Of a stretch of 64,000 nucleotides of DNA, positions 2,358-58,510 are shown one piece after another. Below the pieces are notes generated by a model. The model was not told the DNA's origin. It was given only the letters and a program-made list of their open reading frames with translations, and did no database searches. A program made the translations under genes and the position numbers. The DNA is from Escherichia phage vB_EcoM_Maryam. The stretch's first letter is position 1. The number at the start of each line of letters is the position of its first letter. The stretch is taken from the sequence record PQ799574.1; one strand, written 5' to 3'.

Positions 2358-4535
2358 TTAGGCCGCAAGGGCCTTCATAGTTTTAGCGATTTGGGAAACT
2401 TCATCATCACTTAAAGAGTTGCGATATCCGATGAAGTCGGAAACAATACGGAATTTCTTGGTAAACTCAGCAACCATTTTATCACTGTTTTTTGAAGCAT
2501 TATTTGATAATACATCAAAAAGATTAGTTACTGTCCAGATGTCATGACCGATGGTATCTTTTCCACCATTAAAATATACACCGCGCAATGAACTAACTAT
2601 ATTAGCGAGTCGTGTATATTCTTCAGAAACTTCATCTGTACTGAAGTACTTCATCATAAAATCTAGTTCAGGATACTTGATAATTTTATCAATATATCGT
2701 TGAGCTGAACTTGAATAACCTACATACTTATCATAATCTACATCATCAAAAGCATCTACATATAAATCACGCAAAGCTTCAAAAATACATTGGCACTGAC
2801 CGAGTTCTTTTACCTTTTTCTGTAAAAGCGGACGAATAACATAAAATTCATTAATGCCAATAAGATTAGCCATACGAATCAAAATATTCATAGATGGATG
2901 ACAAAGAGATGTAGTACCATCCATAGAGAAAATATCAGAACGATGCATATACGCTACATAACCAGTAATTTCATCTGCTTCTGATGTGAGCGTAAATAAT
3001 TCCTCTTTTTCCCATCGCCCATCTTTAATTTCAAACTTAAATGCTGTAGCAGCTTTAGGACGAGGAGCTTTACTTTTAACTACCTTTGGAATATAGCTTT
3101 TAACTAAAGCTTCAATTTCTGACAAATAATGAATGTTAACTTCATCACTTTCAAACATCGCCATAATATCAGGAAGTAAATCAATCTGCGATTCTACTTC
3201 CGGATTAATAAACAGAAGACGCTCATTGTGATGAATATTCAAAGTGTTATTAAATTCACTATCATCTAACGCGTGTGCTAATCCACGGACAATATTAACA
3301 CGATTTTTAATATTATCAATAACGATATTAATTTTTGTTGCATTAATACCAAACAGACGATAACTTGATGCAACGGCTGAAGTTTCATGACTTTGCTTAA
3401 TGCGCTTCAGTCGAGGGTCAAGATTTACTTCATACACAACTCCTGCATTACATAACTTACTATCAGGTTCAAACATGCTTTGCATCTTCTTATATGACAG
3501 ATTTTTAGTCGTAAATTTGACTGAATTACTAATCATATAATCTCGAGCAGAATACCCCATCTTCATCAATTCACGATATGTATGACGGGGAGATGTGGAT
3601 TCTTTAAATCGTTTTACATCTTCATTAAATGCTTTCTCACTGAGTTCTTTAACTCGTTCAATGATATTTTTACGAGTGCGATCATCTAGTGAAAGAGCCT
3701 CGCGAGATGGAGCAATATCAAGTGAACCCATTGGAAACTTAATGTAATTCACTTCATTGCGAATGCTTAGCCAGTTACGGTCTCTAATAACACCATCGAT
3801 AGGATAAACAATACCGCCATAGATAGCATATAATCCACCACGATCAGGCCAGTATCTTTCTGGATTTACACCATAATAATCATCAAAATCCGGAAAATAA
3901 TCAATTTCACGGTCAAGACCATTAATGATAGCCAAATCTTTGAACGGTCGCATGATATAAGAAACTTCATAAGCAAAGTTTCTAAAGTCTTTTTCTTCAA
4001 CTGGAACTACGATTTCAATACCAGTTTTATCATCTGGACCCATTTCTTTTACGAATGTAGGTTTAATCTGTGGACCATCACCATCCATGTAAGCTACATA
4101 ACCACGAATTTCACCTTTATGATACGAAGTAATACTAAACGTATCAGTATAACTAAACGGAGATTTAGAACCTAAACCAAATCCGCCAATAAAGTCATTA
4201 GATTCAGCTTTAGATGAACTGAAGTATGAATTATACAACCCAGGAGAATTATCATCACCTTGAATATCAAAATCACTCATACCCGGACCAAAATCTCGAC
4301 AAACAAATCGCGGGTCTAAACGTCCAGGAACTTGTATGATAAATTTCTCTGGATTTCCATTAAGTGCATGAGCATCAATCATGTTAGTAATCAATTCACG
4401 GACTACTGCGCGAATCTTGTTTGTATACAAATCAGACGACAGAATTTTAAATACTTTAGGAGATGCTGTGATGCTAAATGCTTTCGATTTAGAACCATTA
4501 CCAAGAATTGTTTCTTTTTCAGTGGTGATAATCAT
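2358..4535 (-). CDS. rIIA: rIIA protein (725 aa, GHKL-type ATPase fold)
   Basis: Length identical to T4 rIIA; N-terminal ATPase motifs; synteny. Confidence 0.9.
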
Positions 4536-8445: not shown

Positions 8446-8484
8446 GTTGTTTTCTGTATCAGTAGTTGATATTGATATAGTACC

Positions 8485-8513
8485 ATAATCAACTACTGAT
8501 GTATATAGTTTTA
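8485..8513 (-). promoter_or_regulatory. early promoter variant (TATACA-N17-TACTAT)
   Basis: Shares the leader sequence family with 509-538 and 27717-27746. Confidence 0.4.
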
Positions 8514-8530
8514 TGAAAAAATTTTAAACT

Positions 8531-27442: not shown

Positions 27443-27679
27443 TCAAATGCAAGTAGTAATTACTCCAGTAGTGCTTATGCAGGTATTACCCATTTGCACA
27501 CCTAAAGATCCATTTGTATTCACATGAAGATTATCATCAATTTTAACTGATATTTTACCATTAGTGTGAATAACGGTGCTAGATTTAATCACAGGTTGAG
27601 TATCATTTTCAACACTAATAAATGGAACTGCTACTAATGCAACTAAACAAACTGCTAAGCATCCCATAACAATTTTCAT
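27443..27679 (-). CDS. small secreted/membrane protein (78 aa)
   Basis: ATG with GGAGAATAAA RBS; N-terminal hydrophobic segment; repeated promoter cassette upstream. Confidence 0.5.
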   Translation of the reverse strand: MKIVMGCLAVCLVALVAVPFISVENDTQPVIKSSTVIHTNGKISVKIDDNLHVNTNGSLGVQMGNTCISTTGVITTCI

Positions 27680-27726
27680 TTTATTCTCCAAATCTGTATC
27701 AGTAGTTGATAGTTGTATAGTACCAC
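27672..27726. repeat. 55-nt repeated promoter/leader cassette, copy 2
   Basis: Exact match to 464-518. Confidence 0.7.
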
Positions 27727-27746
27727 AGAAGAACAGTCTTGTAAAC
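27717..27746 (-). promoter_or_regulatory. early promoter (PeSL-like), second copy of the repeated cassette
   Basis: GTTTACA-N17-TACTAT; 55-nt repeat shared with 464-518. Confidence 0.5.
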
Positions 27747-27823
27747 AGTTTTGTGAAAATTTTTTAGGGAATTCTAAAGGTCCAGAATCATCTGTTTTTC
27801 ATAAGTATAGATTTATATTACTT

Positions 27824-27862: not shown

Positions 27863-30558
27863 TCAGCCAAACAGGAAGTCTAACGAAGCTTTTTCTTCAT
27901 AGTCCATACCAGCCGATTCACACATGCCTGCAAGCGGTTTAACAAACGATTTTTGGAACAAAGTTGAGTAGTCAATCCAAGATAGTACATCAGAACGAAT
28001 TTCTTTTGGAAGTTCTGTACCCGACGGCCAAGCAATGCACTTGTCGCCAAATGGATTTCCTTCACGTAATGGAAGAACCATTACCTTATTTCCATCCAAA
28101 ATTGGAGCTACACCCAGACCACTAACAGCTCGACGATAAGTTAGCACACCACGAATATGGAACGGGCATTTAAATCCTGGCCAACCTTTATCATCATATT
28201 TCGCTATATCGTTCGCAGTTTTTACTTCAGCAATAACTTTATAGTCAAGTTGACGATATTCTTTCTCGAAGTTCTTGTAATATTCTTGGACAGACTCTTC
28301 ACCTTCCTGAAGAATACGACGAATACTTTCTTCAAGAGCTTCTTGAACTGCTTTAGGCGTTGAACTTTGCTGAGTTTCCATACCCATGATTTTTAGATGC
28401 GGTTCAGCAAAACGCTTATCTTCCATATCATATACGTTCAGAGCATAACGCTTTTTCGCTTTCCAAAATCCACCAACGCCCTTTGAACCAAGTGGAGGGC
28501 AAGAAATAGCTTCACGGTCCATATGCATCAGATGCTCGCGGTTATTCATATAATCACATAACTCACGATATGCAACATCAATCATAGGTTCCATCTTTTT
28601 CTTACCGAACTGATTCATGAATTCAACTAAATCGTTCTGCTCTTTGAATCGGTCAAGACCAACTTTTTCAATAACTTTATCTACACAAACATATACCGAA
28701 TCAGTATCACCTGCTGCAATGAAATCTTCGCCATTAGTTCCGCACACTTTATTCAGATACTCATTAATTTTACGAGCAATCCACTGAATACCAACTTGGC
28801 CGAAAATTGTGATAGCAGTAGCATTTCGCAAATCATAGTAACGGAAATGAATATTACCAAGAGCACCGTAAAGGCTGTTAATAAGAATTTTACGGTTCAG
28901 CTGATTTGTATTAGCAAGTGTAGCCGCTTTTTCACATTCTTCAATCAAACTATTGAGAACAGATTCAGTATAATTCGATAGTTCATTTAAGAAATCATCA
29001 CTGAACTTAACATATCGTTCAACTTCAGGTTTAGTTGAACAAGACCCTGCGCCTTTCATAATAATCTTTTTAATAGCTTCGGCATTCATTTCTTCAGCGA
29101 ACATTTTCTTTTTCCAATCTTTACGCTGGAAAAATACTTTAGCGATTTCCTTTGGAATGATACCTTCTTGATGCTTATCGTACATCCATCCATTCGGAGA
29201 ACAAGAATATTCATCACTCGGTTTAGGAGCTGTTCCTGCGATATATTCATGAATTGGATGAACTTTAAACTGACCACGAATAGTCTCAGGACTAATGTTA
29301 ACCTGACGAATAATGCTCGGATACAGAGACGTCAAGTCAAAACTCATAATATATCGACGAGCAATTGGTTTAGGTTCAAATACAAATGCACCCGGAAAAC
29401 TCTGTTTAACGTGCGAACCTTGTTGAGGAATAACCTTATGTTCACCTTTCAATGAGTTAAAAATAATAGCATCCCAGGTTTTAATAGGACTCATTACACC
29501 AGAAAAAGGCATTTTAGCGTAATAAGACATACTTAAAACTAGATCGATAAACCCGCGAATTTTATCAATTGCTTGAACTGATTCTACGTCAATGATGTTA
29601 TAACTAATGTATCGTTGATGATTAGTCTCACGAAGTTTATTAATAGGACCGTCGTATGGTAATTTACCTTTTTTGGTTTCATGCTGAGCAACTGATTCCA
29701 AAGAGAATGACGGCAAATTAGTAAATGCGAATTTCTTATACAAATCTAAATAATCAAGAATAGATACGCCATCAATAGAATAAATTTCTTTGCTACCGTA
29801 CATATTTTGGATAAGTTTAGATTTTACTCGACCGATTGGAGAGAAGCGTTTCATACTACGTTCACCGAGAACCATTTTAACGCGATTCATGATATACGGA
29901 ACGTCAAATCCCTCAATATTCCAACCAGTAAAAATAGCAGGTCGTTTCTGTTCCCAGAGATTGATATATTCCATGAGCATATCACGCTCATTATCGAATG
30001 GCATATAAATTACTCGGTCAAGAATTTCTTGAGGAACTTCATCACCACCTTCACAGTCAAGCTTAGCAGCTAACTTTGCATCCCATTTTGATACTGAACC
30101 ATACATTGAATTCAAAAGGTCGAAAACATAAAAACGATCATCAATTGAATCGTAATGAGTGATAGCATCAATTTCATATTCAGCTTTCATTGGGTCAGGA
30201 AATTTATCACCAGTAACCTCAATGTCACAGTTAGCTACACGAACAAATTTTCGGTCATAAACAATTTCTGAACCGTATGTATCACTGATAAAGCGAGTTT
30301 AAAATCGTTCATACCGAGAGCTTCGAGACCGATGTCTTCCATTCGTTTCATCCAATCTCGAGCATCTTTCATTGATGGAAATTTTTGAGGAGCGCAGTTT
30401 TTACCATAGATGTCTTTGTACTTTGACTCTTCCTTACAATGCCTAAACATAGTTGGAAGATATTCTACTTCACGAGTACGTTCCTTTCCATTTTCATCAA
30501 TATAACGTTCAACAATATTATTTCCGACTGTTTCAATAGAGATATAAAATTCTTTCAT
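27863..30558 (-). CDS. 43: DNA polymerase gp43 (family B), reading frame broken by an apparent 1-nt deletion near 30289
   Basis: 107-aa N-terminal ORF (30235-30558) plus 775-aa ORF (27863-30190); the frame of the large ORF stays open upstream to about 30290; fragments sum to the 898 aa of T4 gp43. Confidence 0.85.
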
Positions 30559-30638: not shown

Positions 30639-30875
30639 TTAAATTTCTATTGTACGACGCGATATAACGGACTTGCCATCTGTATTTGTGGTTTTGATAA
30701 TCGCATGAAATGCGCGTTGGCGTGGGTAAACTAATCGTTGGAATTCTTTTTGGAATTCTATTTGTTTATCTTCCGGGAGGTCAAAAACCAGTTGGGTAGA
30801 AGACAGACCATATGTTTGTTTTAGATTTTCGAATATTAGAAAAGCTTCGGTAAACTGAATCTCTGATTGTGTCAT
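30639..30875 (-). CDS. hypothetical protein (78 aa) between regA and gene 43
   Basis: Internal ATG with RBS; the track ORF start overlaps regA. Confidence 0.4.
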   Translation of the reverse strand: MTQSEIQFTEAFLIFENLKQTYGLSSTQLVFDLPEDKQIEFQKEFQRLVYPRQRAFHAIIKTTNTDGKSVISRRTIEI

Positions 30876-30885
30876 ATAATTTACC

Positions 30886-31254
30886 TTAATTACCAATCGT
30901 ATATTTAGGAACGAGTTTCCATTCATGTTTTTGTTTAAAAGAAATAACTCGGAAGTTATTAGTTAAATCTTTCATAAAAGTTCTTTGACCAGGAACGATT
31001 TCAATCAGTCCCCAATCTTCTAACAACCATGCAATCGAATCACGACGAACTTCATCTTCTTCTGTCATTTCAACTTGGCGACCATCCATACGAAGCATTT
31101 CTTTAAAATGAACGATATAGTATAGTCCTTTTTTCTGAAGAATATGACAGGACTGATACAGAACTTTATCTTTATTATTAGCAATTCCCATACGAGTCAA
31201 AGTTTCTTTTACTTTCAGAAAATCTTCAGGTTTTTTAAGAGTAATTTCAATCAT
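30886..31254 (-). CDS. regA: translational repressor RegA (122 aa)
   Basis: Length identical to T4 RegA; position upstream of 43. Confidence 0.85.
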   Translation of the reverse strand: MIEITLKKPEDFLKVKETLTRMGIANNKDKVLYQSCHILQKKGLYYIVHFKEMLRMDGRQVEMTEEDEVRRDSIAWLLEDWGLIEIVPGQRTFMKDLTNNFRVISFKQKHEWKLVPKYTIGN

Positions 31255-31255
31255 T

Positions 31256-31801
31256 TTACCATTCCAATGCTAGTTTTTTGAGTTGTTTCTGTTCTTTTAC
31301 GTTCTTAGTCACTTCTTTCAAAAAATCATCCGTGACTAAACCTTTTAGTTCTTTTAATACTAAAGGAAGTTTTCCATTTTTAGTAAGAATTGATTTATAG
31401 TTAATTGCATCATTTGTATTAACTTGATACCACTTAGCAAGTAACTTAATAATCAATACTTCGGTGGAATCTTCAACCAGTTTTGCCCATTTACCGTATC
31501 TTTTACCACGAGGAACTGCAGCCATTAGATAATTAAAATGAGCTTCATCACTTAAGCCTGATCCAATTAAATTCATAGCATATACAGCTGGCATGCACTC
31601 TGGAAATTGTGATAATGCATTTTCAACCATGAATTTTGAATAATCTTTTTGAGCAATAGAGCATTTAGTTTTATTATTGATAGCTCCAATTATTTCAAAA
31701 AATTCATTTTCAGCTTTTTCTTTAAAAGAATCAGCAGCGGATTGGACAGCTGTCCAATCTTTTGAATACCAAGCAAGTAGGAAAAGATTATGTATGCCCA
31801 T
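31256..31801 (-). CDS. 62: clamp-loader subunit gp62 (181 aa), 5' end possibly altered
   Basis: Position next to regA; about 6 aa shorter than T4 gp62 as I recall it; in-frame TAA directly upstream of the ATG. Confidence 0.75.
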
Positions 31802-31909
31802 TTAGTTCTCCGGTAAATGGAATGCTAAAACCTGCTTTACGCGATCTTTATATTGCGATGAACGAAGAAATGATAAAAGAATTAAAACGTCAACTGAAGG
31901 TGATTTAAT

Positions 31910-32128
31910 TTGGCCAGGGAAATTAATTCAAAATCCGATTATTTTAATTCTCTCAATGATAAAGATAAAAATCTAATACGGCATTTTATTGTTGAGATGG
32001 GATATACCGATACACGCGATTTAAGAGAACATATATTTGAATGTGGTGTAGCTAAAAAGTTTTCATTCACATGCAAATGTTTGAGAGAGGTAATTCAGCA
32101 CTATGAACAATTTAGTCGCAAAACATAA
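31910..32128 (+). CDS. hypothetical protein (72 aa by track, TTG start)
   Basis: ORF only; start codon uncertain. Confidence 0.35.
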   Translation: MAREINSKSDYFNSLNDKDKNLIRHFIVEMGYTDTRDLREHIFECGVAKKFSFTCKCLREVIQHYEQFSRKT

Positions 32129-32211
32129 TTTTAATAAAGCTTCTGTTCATAAGGATAAGAAGAAAGCGTTTAAAGAATCTAATCGCAAGCAGAAACATAA
32201 GGGGAAGGTCT

Positions 32212-32490
32212 ATGATTATTGATTCTCAGTCTGTGGTTCAATACACAATCAAAATTGATATTCTAGAAAAGCTATATAAGTTTCTACCAAATTTATACCA
32301 CTCAATTGTTAATGAATTAGTTGAAGAACTACATCTCGAGAATAATGATTTCTTGATTGGAACTTATAAAGACCTCTCAAAAGCAGGATATTTCTACGTA
32401 ATTCCAGCACCAGGAAAAAGTATTGATGATGTATTAAAAACTATAATGATTTATGTCCATGATTATGAAATTGAAGATTATTTCGAATGA
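32212..32490 (+). CDS. arn: Arn anti-restriction protein (inhibitor of McrBC), 92 aa
   Basis: T4 Arn length; adjacent to asiA; GGGGAAGG RBS. Confidence 0.7.
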   Translation: MIIDSQSVVQYTIKIDILEKLYKFLPNLYHSIVNELVEELHLENNDFLIGTYKDLSKAGYFYVIPAPGKSIDDVLKTIMIYVHDYEIEDYFE

Positions 32491-32639
32491 GTCATAATCT
32501 TGAAAAAGTAATCGAGCATAATGTAGCTCAGGAACGTAAGTCGTTCAAGGAATTCGTAGAAAAAATTTTTGAAGAAAATAGCACAGACCAGTTTACAAAT
32601 CAAACGTCTGATGATATTATAACAAAGTCAACTAATTGA
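32487..32639 (+). CDS. small protein (50 aa), asiA.1-like
   Basis: ATGA overlap with arn stop; own translation. Confidence 0.35.
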   Translation: MSHNLEKVIEHNVAQERKSFKEFVEKIFEENSTDQFTNQTSDDIITKSTN

Positions 32640-32651
32640 GTGGTATAGTTA

Positions 32652-32924
32652 ATGAATAAAAATATTGATACAGTTCGTGAAATTATTACTGTTGCGTCTA
32701 TTTTGATTAAATTTTCCAGAGAAGATATTGTTGAAAATCGTGCTAATTTTATTGCATTTCTGAATGAGATTGGAGTAACGCATGAAGGTAGAAAGTTAAA
32801 TCAGAATTCATTCCGTAAAACTGTTTCTGAATTAACTCAAGAAGATAAGAAAACCCTCATCGACGAATTCAACGAGGGTTTTGAGGGTGTATATCGATAT
32901 CTAGAGATGTATACGAACAAATAA
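32652..32924 (+). CDS. asiA: anti-sigma-70 factor AsiA (90 aa)
   Basis: T4 AsiA length; convergent with holin t. Confidence 0.85.
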   Translation: MNKNIDTVREIITVASILIKFSREDIVENRANFIAFLNEIGVTHEGRKLNQNSFRKTVSELTQEDKKTLIDEFNEGFEGVYRYLEMYTNK

Positions 32925-33611: not shown

Positions 33612-34388
33612 TTATACTCTTGGACCATATATTGCTCCAACATTTTGCCACGTTGGAGAAGACCCTATAACAGCATATCCAGAATCGCCGCCATTGTATT
33701 CAGATCCTTGACCACGAATATTACATCTACCTCCTGCGGCGCCTACCTCACCACCGCTTCCGCCATTATAGATACCGTTCACGGACCCCGATCCAGGCGC
33801 ATAAAGAGTACCAGCAGTTGCGCCTGATTGCATATCAATAGATCCGCCAGGTGCACCAAACGGACGCCCACCACCACCACCAAAGGTTAATCTCATTTGT
33901 GAAAAAGGAGAATAATACCCACCGCCACCACCGCCACCACCGGCAGCAATAGCTCCGCCATTATTAATTCTTAGTCTCCCACCAATATCGTTTTGAATAC
34001 AATGACCTCCAGCTGAGCCAGGACTATTGCTACCGCCATTACCTCCACGACCATACATCGTTACGCCGTGTATATTTAACTGAACATATTCATTTGGTGT
34101 ATCTCCGTACATAAAGAATAAAGGAACATCTTTAGAATATGATACTAAATCACCTGTAATATTAAACACTATAGGTGCACTACCTGCCTCAAAACATCTA
34201 TCTCGGAACCATTGACCATTGAAGTTATGGTCTGCTCCAAGCGTGTGAATTATTTCAACAGATCGACCTATCATATTACTCATCCAAAACGGAACGCCCA
34301 TTCTTAATCTTGCGGCTGCTCCTGCCATCCAATGGTCTCCAGTCTGTGCCAATGCAGAAGTTCCTATCCACGGTCCTGCTACTGCCAT
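33612..34388 (-). CDS. 38: gp38 receptor-recognising adhesin (T2/Ox2/K3 type), 258 aa
   Basis: Poly-glycine segments flanking variable loops; GGAGG RBS before ATG at 34388; follows gene 37. Confidence 0.8.
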
Positions 34389-34398
34389 ATAAACCTCC

Positions 34399-34416
34399 AA
34401 GGGGCCGAAGCCCCTC
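34399..34416 (-). other. intercistronic UUCG hairpin between genes 37 and 38, next to the gp38 RBS
   Basis: GGGGC-UUCG-GCCCC directly upstream of GGAGG. Confidence 0.4.
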
Positions 34417-34419
34417 TTA

Positions 34420-37400
34420 TTATTTTAACAATGATTTAACTAATGCTTTAAGTTCTTCGATTTCTGATTTAAGTTCTGCAATTTCTGCAGTATGCTCATT
34501 GATTGCAGCTGTATTTAAACCAATTACACCGTTATAGTTCAAACGAAGTAAAGCTTCGCCATCAGGGTCACCTTCAACTAATTCTGGTAAAATAGCTTGA
34601 ACTTCTTGAGCAATTAAACCGGCGTTAGGTTCCCATTTCTGATTGCCTTCTTCATCTAGGCCTCGCTTCTGCATATAAGTGTAACCGTTAATTTTGGAAA
34701 GCTTCTCAGAAGCATTTTCAAATTTAACAAGGTCTTTTTTAACACGAATATCAGAACGGACATAAACATCTCGAACAAATGTGGAATAGGCATCGCTCTG
34801 TTGGACTAAATGACCAAAAGAAATAATAGCTCTTCCTTGTTCAGTCCACAAAGCACCAGTGGTATCCCAAAGACCTTCATGGAGATGGTAAGCGGACGAC
34901 CATGAAGCAATATGCATTCCATTTGCAACCATATTAATTCGCCCATCACCGCCATGAACTAATCCAGTATCATTATCACCAATAACAAGACATGGTCCAG
35001 TCCACACCGGGTCACCACCGCCAGCTGATAATCTTGCTCCGGTTTGAACCATGTTAGGAACATACAGAACTCCAGTGTGGTGGAATTCATAGATAGCTTG
35101 TGGGTCAGAACCGTTTTCCTGGTTACCTACACGAATAATACCTTGTGCCCAGTTATTAGTAATGCGACGCATACCAAAATCAACGCTAGATATGTATCCT
35201 TCATTCGTAATAGCAGATTTTCCTTTAATAATAGGATAATAACTATCATTACCAACATTACCAAAATCTACAAATATCGGAGCTTCTTGTCGCCATTGGT
35301 TTCCCCAATCGCCAGCCTGGTGCGCAGTCCATTGTGTACCGTTTATATGAAGGCGGTCTCTATTAAAATTAAATGTTCCTTGACCTTGAGGAGAAAGCGA
35401 TATTTCGCCGTTATTTGTTATGTATACACCACCCTGTGTAATGTAACTGTAAAAACCTAGACCGTTGTCGCCGCCACCTTTGCCTATATACCAGTTATTT
35501 GTACCACCTACATCACTACGGATATGTGATGAAGCACCTCCGCCAGCAGTTAAAACGAGAGCATCATTGCCTGCTGATAAAGTCAATTTACCAGTCATCG
35601 TGTCGCCTTCTTTAGAAACACGAGTAGCTATTGCATCGCGAATATTTGTGGTTTCTCCCGCAGAAGTAAACGATTTCCAAATATCTGAGAAAATATTACC
35701 ATTACGAGCAATAGTAGCTTCACCGCCGCCGACTTGAACGTTATCGGGGAAATTAACTGTACCGTCTTGATTAAAACGAGACGTATGGCCTTGTGAACCA
35801 TCTTCTTTTAAATGATGTAAAACAAATGTACCCGAATTAATTTCAGTACCTAAAGACCAAACAGCTTTACTGTTTAAAAACTTCTGTTTAACAATAGGAT
35901 AATATTTACTTACTGCGTCATCATCGATTTCCTGGAAAATAGGAGCTGCTTGAACATATTGAATATCATAACCACCAGCGCCAGCGCCGTGACCAGTAAA
36001 TTTAATATATCCGTTTGCTGCGAACGTATTGTAACTTGATTGTAAATCTGGAATAGTAACTTTACCAGTATCTAAAGCCATACTAAACGGGCGAAGTGGA
36101 CCGATATCACCATGTTTACCTTCACCATAAGCAGTTGGAATAATATGAAGACTGCCTTCTGAACGTCTAAAAATAGCTCCATAATCTGCGTTCCAAATGC
36201 GAAGAGCATTCACTGCTCCAGATGAAATTTCGCCTGTTGTGTGAACTCCTCTATTTCCAGCAGTAACACCAGATGATTCAAATGAACCGTTAACGTTCAT
36301 TTCTACTTCACCTGTTGTAAGTCTTTGAATATAGCTCATCCAGCTAGTTGCATCGGAAATTTCCATGACATTTTTGCGATTACCTTCACTAGGAATAGTA
36401 AATGTATTACCCCACACGGAAATTGTCATATTATCAACTGAACTACTACCAGTTGTGTTACCTCTAAACATCAGTGTAGAAGCATTATTTCTACCATCGA
36501 TATTAACAGAACCACCAATAACGTCAATATTACCAGGAGTAACTAACAAACCGCCATGAGTATTAATGTTTGTGGTACCCTTGCCGCGGAAATAATGATG
36601 ATAGTTACCGCCTTGATAATATCCTAAAAGAGTCTGACCATCTCCAAACGCGTTATTATCGTGATATGTCACGACAGTAGCAAGAGCATAATTTTCAGTT
36701 GGAGGAGTAGTTAAATCGGTTCCGTTAGTAGAATATCCAGCTACAAATTTTCTTAGGCTAGTTGTTTCGCTAGGACTAAATAAAAACGTTTTTGTTCCAT
36801 TATTAACGCTAAAATAATATCCATCTTGATGCCATTTAAATCCAGTATCATTATCTCCTAAAGCAATACTAGATTGTCCTAATATTGAATAATCTTTATT
36901 ACCAGGTGTTAAACCAATAGAAATTGAGTGACTTGATTTAATTCCGCCGCTCCAAGTAAATGACCAAAGATAGGTGTCAAGTCCATCACCTGCATACCAA
37001 GTTATTCCATCATTATCTTTAACTTCATGGAAAATACCAGAACCAACGGCATTACGCATGACACGAAGATGATTAATAGCAGTAGTGCTTTCAGACAATG
37101 GAACATTGTCTGCCATCGAATAGATGTCATAATCACCCGTAGATTTATTATTAGTAATGACTTTGTTGGTCAGAATTTGTGGAGACGAAATAGATTTCCA
37201 TGCTGATACTTCAGGTGAAGTAAATAGTCCACTGCCTGAAAATGCATAAGTGCTTTCGCTACCAGCGGCGTAGTCTTGAACCCTGATATTAAGTACTTGT
37301 GTAGTTAAACCATCATTAGCCGGGGCATAAATGATTCCGCGTTCGCGACTATTGTTATCGAAAAAACGAACATGCGCTGTACCTGAACTTTTTGTAATAA

Positions 37401-37731
37401 GTTCTCCGCCTTCAGTCATAATCTGCCCAGCGGAAATAATATCGCGAGTTACTCGAGCAATACCAATTAAATTAAAATTACCAGTCTGAGTGAAGACGCC
37501 ATTTAAAGTATAATCGCCAGTTTGGTTATAATTGCCTGTATGAATAACATTCCCGTCAATACTACCGCCTTTAGCAAAACCCAGATCAATAATATTTCCT
37601 TGGTCATCTTTAGTAAAAAGTACACGGTCTTTTAAGTTTATAGCCAATTCACCTTCGGCTAATACTGAAGCGGCAGGACGTGCTCCTGCAGTTTTGCTTC
37701 TTTTAAATTGTATTTGTTTTAAAGTAGCCAT
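34420..37731 (-). CDS. 37: long tail fibre distal subunit gp37 (1103 aa) with C-terminal chaperone-like domain
   Basis: Size and synteny 34-35-36-37-38; C-terminal SDIRVKKD motif and coiled coil. Confidence 0.9.
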
Positions 37732-45719: not shown

Positions 45720-46352
45720 ATGAATATAGTATATTGGTTTACATTTGAAGACCGTGTCAAAAATAAGACTCCACCGTACTACTATATCGGTAGTAAATTA
45801 AATTGCTCATTTGAGAACGGAATAATATATGACTCTTCCGGAAAGGAATACTGGAGCTCATGTAAACAAAAAAGATTTTTGAATGCGCTAATGCTTCAAA
45901 AACCGAGCGTTAAAATAATTCAAATTGATGATGACTTGGATGTTATTGAAGCAGAACGAAAATACCAACTTGAAGTAAATGCCAGAGATAATCCAGACTA
46001 TTTTAATCTGGTATATGCTGGTGGTGGATTTGGTGTGAGTGGTGAAACTCATCCAGCCAAAGACCCGGAAGTTAGAGAGCATATGAGATTGGCTAATTAT
46101 ATGAACCGTGACGATTTTAGACCTTGGAAAACATCACGAGCTAATATAGAGTCTTGGAAATTATCTCATATTGCTTACGAGAATTATGTGTTATTATTAT
46201 CCTCTAATCTGTACGGTAAAACTCCTGGATGGCGAAGAGTTAAAGGTAATATAAATATAACTGATACAACTGCTAAATCGATGGTAAAGTATTTCAACTC
46301 AGGTTGGATACCTCTCGAAGACCCAGAGTATTGCAAATTATGCCAGCTATGA
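45720..46352 (+). CDS. GIY-YIG family endonuclease (SegG-like homing endonuclease), 210 aa
   Basis: VYW...YYYIG...R...E...N pattern of GIY-YIG domains; lies between 59 and 32. Confidence 0.5.
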   Translation: MNIVYWFTFEDRVKNKTPPYYYIGSKLNCSFENGIIYDSSGKEYWSSCKQKRFLNALMLQKPSVKIIQIDDDLDVIEAERKYQLEVNARDNPDYFNLVYAGGGFGVSGETHPAKDPEVREHMRLANYMNRDDFRPWKTSRANIESWKLSHIAYENYVLLLSSNLYGKTPGWRRVKGNINITDTTAKSMVKYFNSGWIPLEDPEYCKLCQL

Positions 46353-47334: not shown

Positions 47335-47362
47335 GGGGACCCTAGAGGTCCCCTTTTTTATT
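47335..47362 (+). terminator. intrinsic terminator after gene 32
   Basis: GGGGACC-CUAGA-GGUCCCC plus UUUUUUA. Confidence 0.75.
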
Positions 47363-47384
47363 TCAAAAATTTTTTCACAAAACG

Positions 47385-47414
47385 GTTTACATCCTTGTCC
47401 TTCCATGGTACTAT
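47385..47414 (+). promoter_or_regulatory. early promoter (PeSL-like) downstream of the gene 32 terminator
   Basis: GTTTACAtccttgtccttccatggTACTAT. Confidence 0.5.
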
Positions 47415-47457
47415 ACAACTATCGGCAATACTGCTAATAATTAAAGAGGAAAATAAT

Positions 47458-47685
47458 ATGGCTAAAGTTGATATTGATGTTGTTGATTTTGAATATATTG
47501 AAGAAATTATTCGTAATCGTTATCCTGAACTTAGTATCACAAGCGTGCAAGATTCTAAGTTTTGGAGTATTCAAATCGTTATTGAAGGTCCTCTTGAAGA
47601 CCTCACCCGCTTTATGGCTAATGAATATTGTGATGGCATGGATTCTGAAGACGCAGAATTTTACATGGGACTGATTGAACAATAA
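47458..47685 (+). CDS. hypothetical protein (75 aa)
   Basis: ATG with AAGAGGAAAA RBS; early promoter at 47385-47414. Confidence 0.45.
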
Positions 47686-50058: not shown

Positions 50059-51934
50059 TGAAACAATACCAATTTTTAATTAAAGATATCCTGGAAAATG
50101 GCTACGAAACCGATGACCGAACAGGCACAGGAACAATTGCTTTGTTCGGTACTAAATTACGCTGGGATTTAACTAAAGGTTTTCCTGCAGTAACAACTAA
50201 GAAGCTCGCCTGGAAAGCTTGCATTGCTGAGCTAATATGGTTTTTATCGGGAAGCACAAATGTCAATGATTTGCGATTAATTCAACATGATTCGTTAATT
50301 CAAGGCAAAACAGTTTGGGATGAAAATTACGAAAATCAAGCAAAAGATTTAGGATATCATAGCGGTGAACTTGGTCCAATTTATGGAAAACAGTGGCGTG
50401 ATTTTGGCGGTGTAGATCAAATTATAGAAGTTATTGATCGTATTAAAAAACTGCCAAATGATAGGCGTCAAATTGTTTCTGCGTGGAATCCAGCTGAACT
50501 TAAATATATGGCATTACCGCCTTGTCATATGTTCTATCAGTTTAATGTGCGTAATGGCTATTTGGATTTGCAGTGGTATCAACGATCAGTAGATGTTTTC
50601 TTGGGTTAATTGAGGCCTGAGTATAAGGTGACTTATACTTGTAATCTATCTAAACGGGGAACCTCTCTAGTAGACAATCCCGTGCTAAATTGTAGGACTG
50701 CCCTTTAATAAATACTTCTATATTTAAAGAGGTATTTATGAAAAGCGGAATTTATCAGATTAAAAATACTTTAAACAATAAAGTATATGTAGGAAGTGCT
50801 AAAGATTTTGAAAAGAGATGGAAGAGGCATTTTAAAGATTTAGAAAAAGGATGCCATTCTTCTATAAAGCTTCAGAGGTCTTTTAACAAACATGGTAATG
50901 TGTTTGAATGTTCTATTTTGGAAGAAATTCCATATGAGAAAGATTTGATTATTGAACGAGAAAATTTTTGGATTAAAGAGCTTAATTCTAAAATTAATGG
51001 ATACAATATTGCTGATGCAACGTTTGGTGATACATGTTCTACGCATCCATTAAAAGAAGAAATTATTAAGAAACGTTCTGAAACTGTTAAAGCTAAGATG
51101 CTTAAACTTGGACCTGATGGTCGGAAAGCTCTTTACAGTAAACCCGGAAGTAAAAACGGGCGTTGGAATCCAGAAACCCATAAGTTTTGTAAGTGCGGTG
51201 TTCGCATACAAACTTCTGCTTATACTTGTAGTAAATGCAGAAATCGTTCAGGTGAAAATAATTCATTCTTTAATCATAAGCATTCAGACATAACTAAATC
51301 TAAAATATCAGAAAAGATGAAAGGTAAAAAGCCTAGTAATATTAAAAAGATTTCATGTGATGGGGTTATTTTTGATTGTGCAGCAGATGCAGCTAGACAT
51401 TTTAAAATTTCGTCTGGATTAGTTACTTATCGTGTAAAATCTGATAAATGGAATTGGTTCTACATAAATGCCTAACGACTATCCCTTTGGGGAGTAGGGT
51501 CAAGTGACTCGAAACGGTAGACAACTTGCTTTAACAAGTTGGAGATATAGTCTGATCTGCATGGTGACATGCAGCTGGATATAATTCCGGGGTAAGATTA
51601 ACGACCTTATCTGAACATAATGCTTCCATTTAATATTGCATCATATGCTGCGTTAGTTCATATTGTAGCTAAGATATGTAATCTTATTCCGGGAGATTTG
51701 ATATTTTCTGGCGGTAATACTCATATCTATATGAATCACGTAGAACAATGTAAAGAAATTTTGCGTCGTGAACCTATGGATTTATGCGAATTACAATTAA
51801 AATTTCCAGATGAATTTGATGAATGGAACACAGAATCGCAGGTATTTTGGTTGAGTCAATTTGCAAAGCCTCATAATTTTGTTCTTAACAACTATGAATC
51901 ACATCCTCCTATTAAAGGAAAGATGGCGGTGTAA
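50058..51934 (+). CDS. td: thymidylate synthase, split by a group I intron (exon 1 50058-50606, exon 2 51623-51934; 286 aa spliced)
   Basis: Exon 1 ends ...VDVFLG and exon 2 continues LPFNIASYA... in frame; spliced length equals T4 TS. Confidence 0.9.
50607..51622 (+). mobile_element. td group I self-splicing intron (1016 nt) carrying the I-TevI homing endonuclease ORF
   Basis: Intron starts UAAUUGAGGCCUGAGUAUAAGG and ends ...GAACAUAAUG between td exons; 1016 nt as in T4. Confidence 0.85.
50738..51475 (+). CDS. I-TevI GIY-YIG homing endonuclease (245 aa), intron-encoded
   Basis: GIYQIKN...YVGSA motif; zinc finger; inside the td intron. Confidence 0.9.
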   Translation: MKSGIYQIKNTLNNKVYVGSAKDFEKRWKRHFKDLEKGCHSSIKLQRSFNKHGNVFECSILEEIPYEKDLIIERENFWIKELNSKINGYNIADATFGDTCSTHPLKEEIIKKRSETVKAKMLKLGPDGRKALYSKPGSKNGRWNPETHKFCKCGVRIQTSAYTCSKCRNRSGENNSFFNHKHSDITKSKISEKMKGKKPSNIKKISCDGVIFDCAADAARHFKISSGLVTYRVKSDKWNWFYINA

Positions 51935-58166: not shown

Positions 58167-58510
58167 GTAATACGACAGCAGGCTTGTTATTAATTGTAAT
58201 TGCATTGGGCGGAACTTCTTTAATTTTAAAAAATAAAATTGAAAGATTAGAAACGTCTGTTGTAGAAATTACAAAAACGGCCAATGAAAACGCCTTAGCA
58301 TTAAATGATTTAAAAAATCAATATAATTATATTGATGCGATGAATAATAAAAATCGTGAGGCGATTGCTGCTATTGAGCGTGAAAATGAAAAGCTGCGCA
58401 AAGACGCAAAGAAGGCGGATGTGGTGGCTCATAAGCCAGGATTGGTTGAAAAACAAATCAACAACTCCTTCAACAAGTTCGCAGAAGACATCCAGGACCT
58501 TTCTAAATGA
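58157..58510 (+). CDS. membrane-anchored coiled-coil protein (117 aa)
   Basis: N-terminal TM segment then coiled coil. Confidence 0.45.
   Translation: MHVSNTTAGLLLIVIALGGTSLILKNKIERLETSVVEITKTANENALALNDLKNQYNYIDAMNNKNREAIAAIERENEKLRKDAKKADVVAHKPGLVEKQINNSFNKFAEDIQDLSK

Follow-up and report, generated by a model that had tools for sequence, protein, structure and literature searches.

Gene order on the two sides of the join

The 64,000-nucleotide (nt) stretch of the genome of Escherichia phage vB_EcoM_Maryam (PQ799574.1) analyzed here, referred to below as the window, is DNA of a T4-like phage of the genus Tequatrovirus and is 95-99% identical to hundreds of records of Escherichia, Shigella and Yersinia phages. 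The subject of this analysis is a join near the middle of the window, at which gene 62, the gene for the clamp loader's A (clasp) subunit, abuts the arn-asiA region. On the minus strand to the left of the join, there are gene 43, a small open reading frame (ORF), regA (30886-31254) and a gp62-like ORF (31256-31801); on the plus strand to the right, a fragment of arn.2 is followed by an arn.1-like ORF, arn and asiA. The first-pass annotation of this DNA, made from the letters alone, had flagged a synteny breakpoint at this place, and both blastn and megablast confirm a single break, between positions 31776 and 31777.

When the whole window is compared by blastn with the closest reference, MZ234018.1, it resolves into two collinear blocks of opposite orientation separated by this one breakpoint. 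Block 1 maps to the reference from 54671 down to 22645, with 97.4% identity over 31.3 kb in one high-scoring segment pair (HSP) plus a short one, and block 2 (31777-64000) maps from approximately 59535 up to 89971 in ten collinear HSPs and is thus inverted with respect to block 1. Simple deletion of the intervening DNA, which had already been rejected in the first-pass annotation on account of the inverted orientation, is ruled out by the opposite orientation of the blocks. The assignment of the plus-strand genes to the right of gene 62 as arn.1-like, arn and asiA also holds, being supported by the ORF map, by Pfam matches for arn and asiA and by the match of the arn.1-like ORF to a related contig. 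The best-matching references differ between the blocks, MZ234018 for block 1 and others for block 2; this is normal mosaicism and is uninformative with regard to an origin from two phages.

Within each block, gene content and order are the same as in public phages, and block 1 as a whole is about 97% identical to them. The order 45-44-62-regA-43, which the first-pass annotation had given for T-even phages, is indeed annotated in seven references, and the references and related contigs that we examined have the order 37-38-t-asiA-arn-arn.1-arn.2-...-motA-52. In the references, the two regions have the same orientation and are about 36.9 kb apart, whereas here they are fused head-to-head at nt 43/44 of gene 62 and codon 49/50 of arn.2. 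The distance of about 130 kb quoted at first is valid for the linear map only; along the short arc of the circular map, the two loci are separated by the 36.9 kb just mentioned. Nothing in the 64-kb window matches genes 46, 45 and 44 or the initial 43 nt of gene 62, in agreement with the earlier remark that genes 44 and 45 are missing. The geometry is that of one end of an inversion of the segment 22645-59534 of MZ234018.1 (about 36.9 kb), which would contain 62', regA, 43 ... rIIA, rIIB, ndd, 52, motA, arn.4, arn.3 and arn.2'. The reciprocal junction of such an inversion, in which gene 44 and nt 1-43 of gene 62 would be joined to antisense codons 49-1 of arn.2, is predicted to lie approximately 4.9 kb to the left of the first base of the window.

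Base-level anatomy of the join

The position of the join was fixed by base-by-base comparison with 13 relatives and by a three-way comparison. On the left side, about 500 records match up to 31776 and then stop (megablast, query 30800-31900), and on the right side, about 590 records match from 31777 onward (megablast, query 31200-32500). With a double slash marking the breakpoint, the flanks read ...CCAAGCAA//CTTGATG on the gene 62 side and ...AAAAGCT(T/C)//GTAGGAAAAG on the arn.2 side. Both breakpoints sit within coding sequence, and the sequence lost at the join comprises the first 43 nt of gene 62 (residues 1-15) as well as the first 49 codons of arn.2. The base-level comparison with the 13 relatives reveals neither inserted bases nor true microhomology at the join; the only shared tetramer, AAGC/GCTT, is displaced from it by 2 nt. 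An apparent 6-nt microhomology, suggested by some BLAST matches that begin at 31771, was rejected because, in the 13 references, it is merely an extension of the alignment across two mismatches. In the canonical sequences extending 200 nt to each side of the breakpoints, only chance 5-6-mers are common to the two, in either orientation. The flanks are 98-99% identical to those of relatives, with up to 99.3% on the left over 30800-31776 (regA and the gene 62 body) and about 98% on the right next to the join. The absence of decay or adaptation in these flanks implies that the event is either extremely recent or not biological.

Given the absence at the join of homology, of an inverted repeat, of inserted bases and of any other repeat, neither homologous nor site-specific recombination explains it. 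Recombination between inverted repeats, either of the type seen in the G segment of Mu and the C segment of P1 or between repeated early-promoter cassettes, appears extremely improbable, and homologous or site-specific inversion can in practice be excluded on the basis of the sequences compared. Dispersed intergenic repeats of about 80 nt do occur in T4-type genomes, and the window contains four copies (469-548, 8452-8528, 27679-27759 and 47351-47468) that are 78-86% identical and resemble the region upstream of the reference motA; they look like the early-promoter/stem-loop cassettes that are repeated in T4-type phages. Neither breakpoint, however, lies in or near such a repeat, the closest copy being about 4 kb away, and the location of both breakpoints inside genes further argues against this route. 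The invertible segments of Mu (G/Gin) and P1 (C/Cin) are similar to the present case in that inverted phage DNA adjoins tail-fiber genes. These segments are 3-4 kb long, bounded by inverted repeats and inverted by a serine recombinase, whereas the segment implied here is about 37 kb long, has no repeat at its breakpoints and begins and ends within genes. No invertase-type sites were found at the breakpoints, and the ORFs that flank the junction are ordinary T4 genes (regA, 62, arn.1, arn and asiA).

The gene 62 fusion ORF and the arn.2 remnant

The join generates a fusion ORF of 181 amino acids (aa), compared with 187 aa in T4 gp62. The fusion protein aligns to T4 gp62 (PDB 8uh7_A and 3u5z_A; 1e-111) from residue 14-16 to residue 187, and the native residues 1-15, MSLFEDDIQLNEHQV, are replaced with MGIHNLFLL, which is translated from antisense arn.2. 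The new ATG is immediately preceded by a TAA codon (31802-31804) and, 6 nt upstream, by GGAG (31808-31811); both the ATG and the GGAG are fortuitously present already in relatives, on the antisense strand of arn.2. The protein has homology to gp62 over the folded body and retains the two tryptophans discussed below; the native N-terminus, the native start codon and the position behind gene 44 are absent. The length difference, the altered first nine residues and the TAA preceding the ATG had all been noticed in the first-pass annotation, which placed the junction inside the 5' end of gene 62; the PDB alignment and the ORF map support each of these points and locate the junction 43 nt into the gene. 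The adjacent spacer of about 110 nt that was then described as non-coding has to be reinterpreted, because the approximately 108 nt between the gene 62 ATG and arn.1 are part of a truncated arn.2 (codons 50-92). The translation of this remnant, ending in KVI followed by the stop, is identical to residues 50-92 of the 98-aa Y16C ORF of a related contig (L008), and the homologous ORFs in ten related contigs carry the Pfam domain Phage_T4_Y16C (PF26819).

Expression context of the displaced gene 62

In the seven annotated references, gene 62 begins 1-2 bases after gene 44, within a 45-44-62 unit. Here, it is parted from its native start codon, from the coupling to gene 44 and from the transcription unit that it shares with genes 45 and 44. 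In motif scans of the region upstream on the gene 62 strand, late promoters (TATAAATA) are absent; of a MotA-type middle promoter, there is a single loose match (TGCTT...TAnnnT) at 32385 but no complete one; and the only two sigma-70-like matches are weak (9/12) and do not exceed those in shuffled sequences. The initial impression that the displaced gene lacks an evident upstream promoter is thus substantiated. Furthermore, a strong terminator-like hairpin downstream of gene t, opposite to the 3' end of asiA, is so placed as to end the convergent late transcript of t and would therefore block read-through to the displaced gene 62. DNA replication requires the gp62 protein and is in turn a prerequisite of late transcription in T4, so that read-through from late genes could not rescue the displaced gene 62. 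The features at and around the join are compiled in Table 1.

Table 1. Blocks, genes and sequence elements at and around the join (positions in the window)
Feature	Position	Strand	Description
Block 1	1-31776	- (genes)	downstream of rIIB, rIIB, rIIA, 39 ... uvsX, 41, 42, imm, 43, regA, 62'
Gene 43, 5' part	30235-30558	-	cut off by a deletion; other part at 27863-30190
Gene 62 body (clamp-loader A/clasp subunit)	31256-31776	-	native codons 16-187; Pfam Phage_clamp_A PF16790, 1.6e-76
Palindrome	31740-31759		perfect, 20 bp, GATTGGACAGCTGTCCAATC; inside gene 62, contains a PvuII site
Junction	31776/31777		blunt; gene 62 nt 44 (antisense) against arn.2 codon 50
New 5' end of the fusion ORF	31777-31801	-	ATG at 31799-31801 plus 8 codons, antisense arn.2
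Block 2, left part	31777 rightwards	+, then -	arn.2', arn.1, arn, asiA (+), then t, 38, 37, 36, 35, 34 (-)
arn.2 3' remnant	31777-31908	+	codons 50-92 and stop; start codon and first 49 codons lacking
arn.1-like ORF	31910-32128	+	identical to the Y16B ORF of related contig L005
arn	32212-32490	+	Pfam DM_Arn, 4e-54
50-aa ORF	between arn and asiA	+	ORF map
asiA	32652-32924	+	Pfam AsiA, 7e-42
Terminator-like hairpin	32850-32882	-	14 pairs and T-run; downstream of t, opposite the 3' end of asiA
Block 2, right part	to 64000	+	rnh, dsbA, 33, 59, 32, frd, td (with intron), nrdA, nrdB ...

Occurrence of the join in other genomes

The two halves of the join do not occur together in one place in any of the 592 phage records compared by megablast. 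Neither 24-mers nor 29-mers of the junction occur in IMG/VR, JGI metagenomes or GTDB genomes, and a 751-nt query spanning the junction gave not a single match among complete E. coli genomes. Look-ups of the exact proteins retrieved no entry for gp37, gp38 or the fusion gp62, and a search for a sibling genome with phage-specific 22-32-mers from gp37 and gp38 did not find any. The tail-fiber adhesin region that includes genes 38 and 37 (33612-37731) is itself distinctive, the nearest public DNA being 94% identical.

Related contigs were identified through exactly identical gp36 (n=10) or RIIA (n=5) proteins, and these 15 contigs show 94-98% DNA identity to the window. The order is canonical through arn.2 in all ten gp36 contigs and in the two, out of the five RIIA contigs, that extend to it. 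In each of the ten gp36-identical contigs, the alignment runs from 31777 rightwards and has its end exactly at that position. A reference phage with the same arrangement, which the first-pass annotation had named, for the whole family, as one of the observations that would refute its reading, is not found among the 592 records or among the related contigs, which are canonical wherever they reach arn.2. A literature search for inversions in T4-like genomes also yielded nothing relevant. The RIIA protein itself (2358-4535, 725 aa) is identical in five contigs (L015-L019), and the respective genes differ at 38-43 sites, nearly all of them third codon positions, a pattern that indicates strong purifying selection on rIIA.

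The gene 43 lesion and the palindrome next to the join

A second lesion is located 1.5 kb from the junction. Gene 43, an essential replication gene that encodes the DNA polymerase, contains a private 1-nt deletion at 30290/30291, where all seven references have a T, and the resulting frameshift follows approximately codon 90, upstream of the ExoI motif. This lesion is either a consensus error or the mark of a defective genome and, because of the frameshift, the sequence as written cannot be the error-free genome of a viable phage. The second feature of note in this vicinity is the perfect palindrome that gene 62 carries at a distance of 17 nt from the join. The 64 kb contain just two palindromes with arms of at least 10 nt (the other one is at 58317-58336), compared with 0.03 in shuffled sequences, and the one in gene 62 is also present in MZ234018.1 and KMB23. 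A random break would fall this close to either palindrome in about 0.2-0.3% of cases, a post-hoc observation that carries modest weight. The palindrome is a possible break-prone site, and any link to the join is putative.

These features bear on the possibility that the join is real but belongs to a non-viable recombinant from the infected cell or lysate, a single inverted join within replicating or packaged T4-type concatemers that would give a defective genome with inverted arms, and that it was captured by the assembler over the majority sequence. A blunt join that is free of homology, interrupts two genes and deprives gene 62 of its expression signals has the look of an unselected illegitimate event, the nearness of the palindrome suggests a structure-provoked break, and the gene 43 lesion fits a defective lineage. 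We nevertheless consider this scenario very unlikely, given that a minority molecule should not win the consensus at normal depth and that the rest of the window resembles a clean majority consensus.

Deliberate rearrangement, in the form of either an engineered phage or an edit in silico (segments mis-pasted during rotation or finishing of the genome, or a constructed test sequence), appears quite unlikely as well. It would account for the perfectly blunt join, in which no bases are gained or lost beyond the missing segments, for the absence of the exact gp37, gp38 and fusion gp62 from the collections searched, and for two independent disabling lesions within 1.5 kb. However, there is no scar, foreign base, restriction-site logic, recombinase site, selection marker or vector sequence, and cuts inside gene 62 and arn.2 serve no evident design purpose. 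Mis-orientation in silico, moreover, overlaps with the artefactual origin favored below rather than competing with it.

Origin of the join

From the observed structure of the join, from its uniqueness and from the damage that it causes, we infer an origin in vitro or in silico: the join is probably an artefactual end-to-end joining of two genuine fragments of one T4-like genome and is most probably not a real biological feature. Several considerations converge on this explanation. None of the other records and contigs examined has this arrangement; an essential early gene, 62, is deprived of its start, of its coupling to gene 44 and of all promoters; the flanks show neither decay nor adaptation; a second disabling lesion, in gene 43, lies within the same 1.5 kb; and, by our own estimate, structural errors in deposited phage genomes are far more common than large inversions in Tequatrovirus. 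The first-pass annotation had listed a large natural inversion, an assembly chimera and an engineered construct as candidates without ranking them; of these, the artefactual chimera now emerges as the most likely, inversion is possible, and engineering has no positive support.

Under this explanation, the join would have been made outside of the replicating phage, by one of two routes. A chimeric library molecule, resulting from blunt ligation or from amplification, could have been carried into the consensus; alternatively, a segment or contig could have been mis-oriented during assembly or finishing. The real phage would then possess the ordinary arrangements ...43-regA-62-44-45... and ...37-38-t-asiA-arn-arn.1-arn.2-arn.3...motA..., with gene 62 and arn.2 intact. 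Inverted chimeric junctions are a documented product of library preparation by both amplification and ligation (PMC1855051; PMC13141652). In multiple displacement amplification (MDA), more than 85% of the chimeras are inverted, with the intervening sequence deleted (Lasken and Stockwell 2007, PMC1855051), and the present join has exactly this form. Like the MDA chimeras and the ligation-induced chimeras of nanopore libraries (PMC13141652), it is private, lacks the intervening DNA and bears no biological signature at the breakpoints.

Several observations weigh against an artefactual origin. A misjoin in a de Bruijn graph normally requires a shared repeat of at least k-mer length, and the sequence shared by the two joined loci never exceeds 6 nt, which speaks for a chimeric molecule or a manual or scaffolding error rather than graph collapse. 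Library chimeras, moreover, are normally confined to a minority of reads and should not reach the consensus. Complementarity of 2-21 nt is present at the junctions of more than 70% of MDA chimeras (PMC1855051) and, with about 30% lacking it, is not strictly required; the join described here has none. The surrounding assembly is clean: apart from genes 43 and 62, every ORF of at least 90 aa that has a reference counterpart is intact across the 64 kb, the only other split ORF being td, which is interrupted by its usual intron-sized insertion, and the density of private substitutions does not rise near the junction. The nearness of the palindrome is a hint that DNA structure provoked a break in a real molecule, whether in vivo or in vitro, and that the cut was not an arbitrary one made in silico. 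Finally, the fusion ORF has both an in-frame ATG and a Shine-Dalgarno-like tetramer, a combination that arose in only 3.8% of random joins when the gene 62 body was joined in a simulation to 20,000 random positions of a reference genome, and it also keeps Trp17, two residues past the join, as well as Trp111. In deep mutagenesis of T4 gp62, these two residues are the most sensitive ones in a protein that is otherwise tolerant (PMC8121543). An in-frame start with a motif resembling a ribosome-binding site, combined with the retained Trp17, is exactly what a viable inversion would need.

The main competing explanation, accordingly, is a genuine inversion of about 36.9 kb in a viable Tequatrovirus, from nt 44 of gene 62 to codon 49 of arn.2, produced by homology-independent breakage and rejoining. 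We regard it as unlikely, albeit not negligible, and the same holds for the routes that can be offered, namely, subunit exchange by a type II topoisomerase or the joining of two double-strand breaks, with one close to the palindrome in gene 62, and for the corollary that gene 62 survives as MGIHNLFLL plus residues 16-187, expressed from the accidental ATG and GGAG. With its one clean breakpoint in 64 kb, the window has precisely the geometry expected at one end of a simple inversion, and the start, the tryptophans, the palindrome and the clean assembly described above all fit; arn.2, for its part, is plausibly a small accessory ORF the loss of which can be tolerated. Conversely, there is no comparable inversion in the Tequatrovirus records examined, and the displaced gene 62, encoding a protein that is needed before replication, has no usable promoter, lies behind a terminator and has lost the coupling to gene 44. 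The gene 43 frameshift, furthermore, would still have to be a sequencing error. Thus, a viable phage with an inversion of about 37 kb in the early/replication region, next to a palindrome and rescued by a fortuitous start and ribosome-binding site of gene 62, is, in our assessment, unlikely.

The classical illegitimate recombination of T4 is comparable with such an event. It yields deletions and tandem duplications with very short or absent homology at their ends, in non-essential regions like rII, and T4 topoisomerase-mediated recombination takes place in vitro. The join analyzed here resembles these events in being independent of homology and located in coding sequence, but the classical events are not inversions in essential genes, and we know of no large T4 inversion that cuts an essential replication gene; the phage records compared by megablast contain none either.

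Other features of the window

The insertion in td is about 1 kb long (50610-51619), is absent from MZ234018.1 and contains a 245-aa ORF (50738-51475) that presumably resembles the T4 intron endonuclease I-TevI. We recognize this insertion as the T4-type td group I intron. The segment that separates genes 59 and 32 contains a 210-aa ORF (45720-46352) that is absent from MZ234018.1 and has no Pfam match; an ORF of the same size is found at the same place in three related contigs (L009, L011 and L014), and it may be a mobile, seg-like endonuclease gene. An Rfam scan of the window gave nothing at the gathering thresholds. Among the related public records, PV654520.1 (142 kb, labeled "Pseudomonas phage vB_PSGBLB0006") is 95.5% identical over 25 kb to the Tequatrovirus analyzed here and is probably mislabeled or contaminated.

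Implications for the genome organization of T4-like phages

If the join is artefactual, a structural error is present in the source record, probably along with a frameshift error in gene 43; the record's gene calls for 62, arn.2 and 43 are then wrong, and it is unfit as evidence of genome plasticity. If, on the other hand, the inversion were true, it would be the first large one in the otherwise rigidly collinear genomes of Tequatrovirus. As a natural experiment, it would show residues 1-15 of gp62, the coupling between genes 44 and 62 and the orientation of early relative to late genes to be all dispensable. Such a phage would overturn the notion of a fixed gene order in T4-type phages and would offer a ready test of whether the organization of the clamp-loader operon and the direction of early transcription matter for viability.

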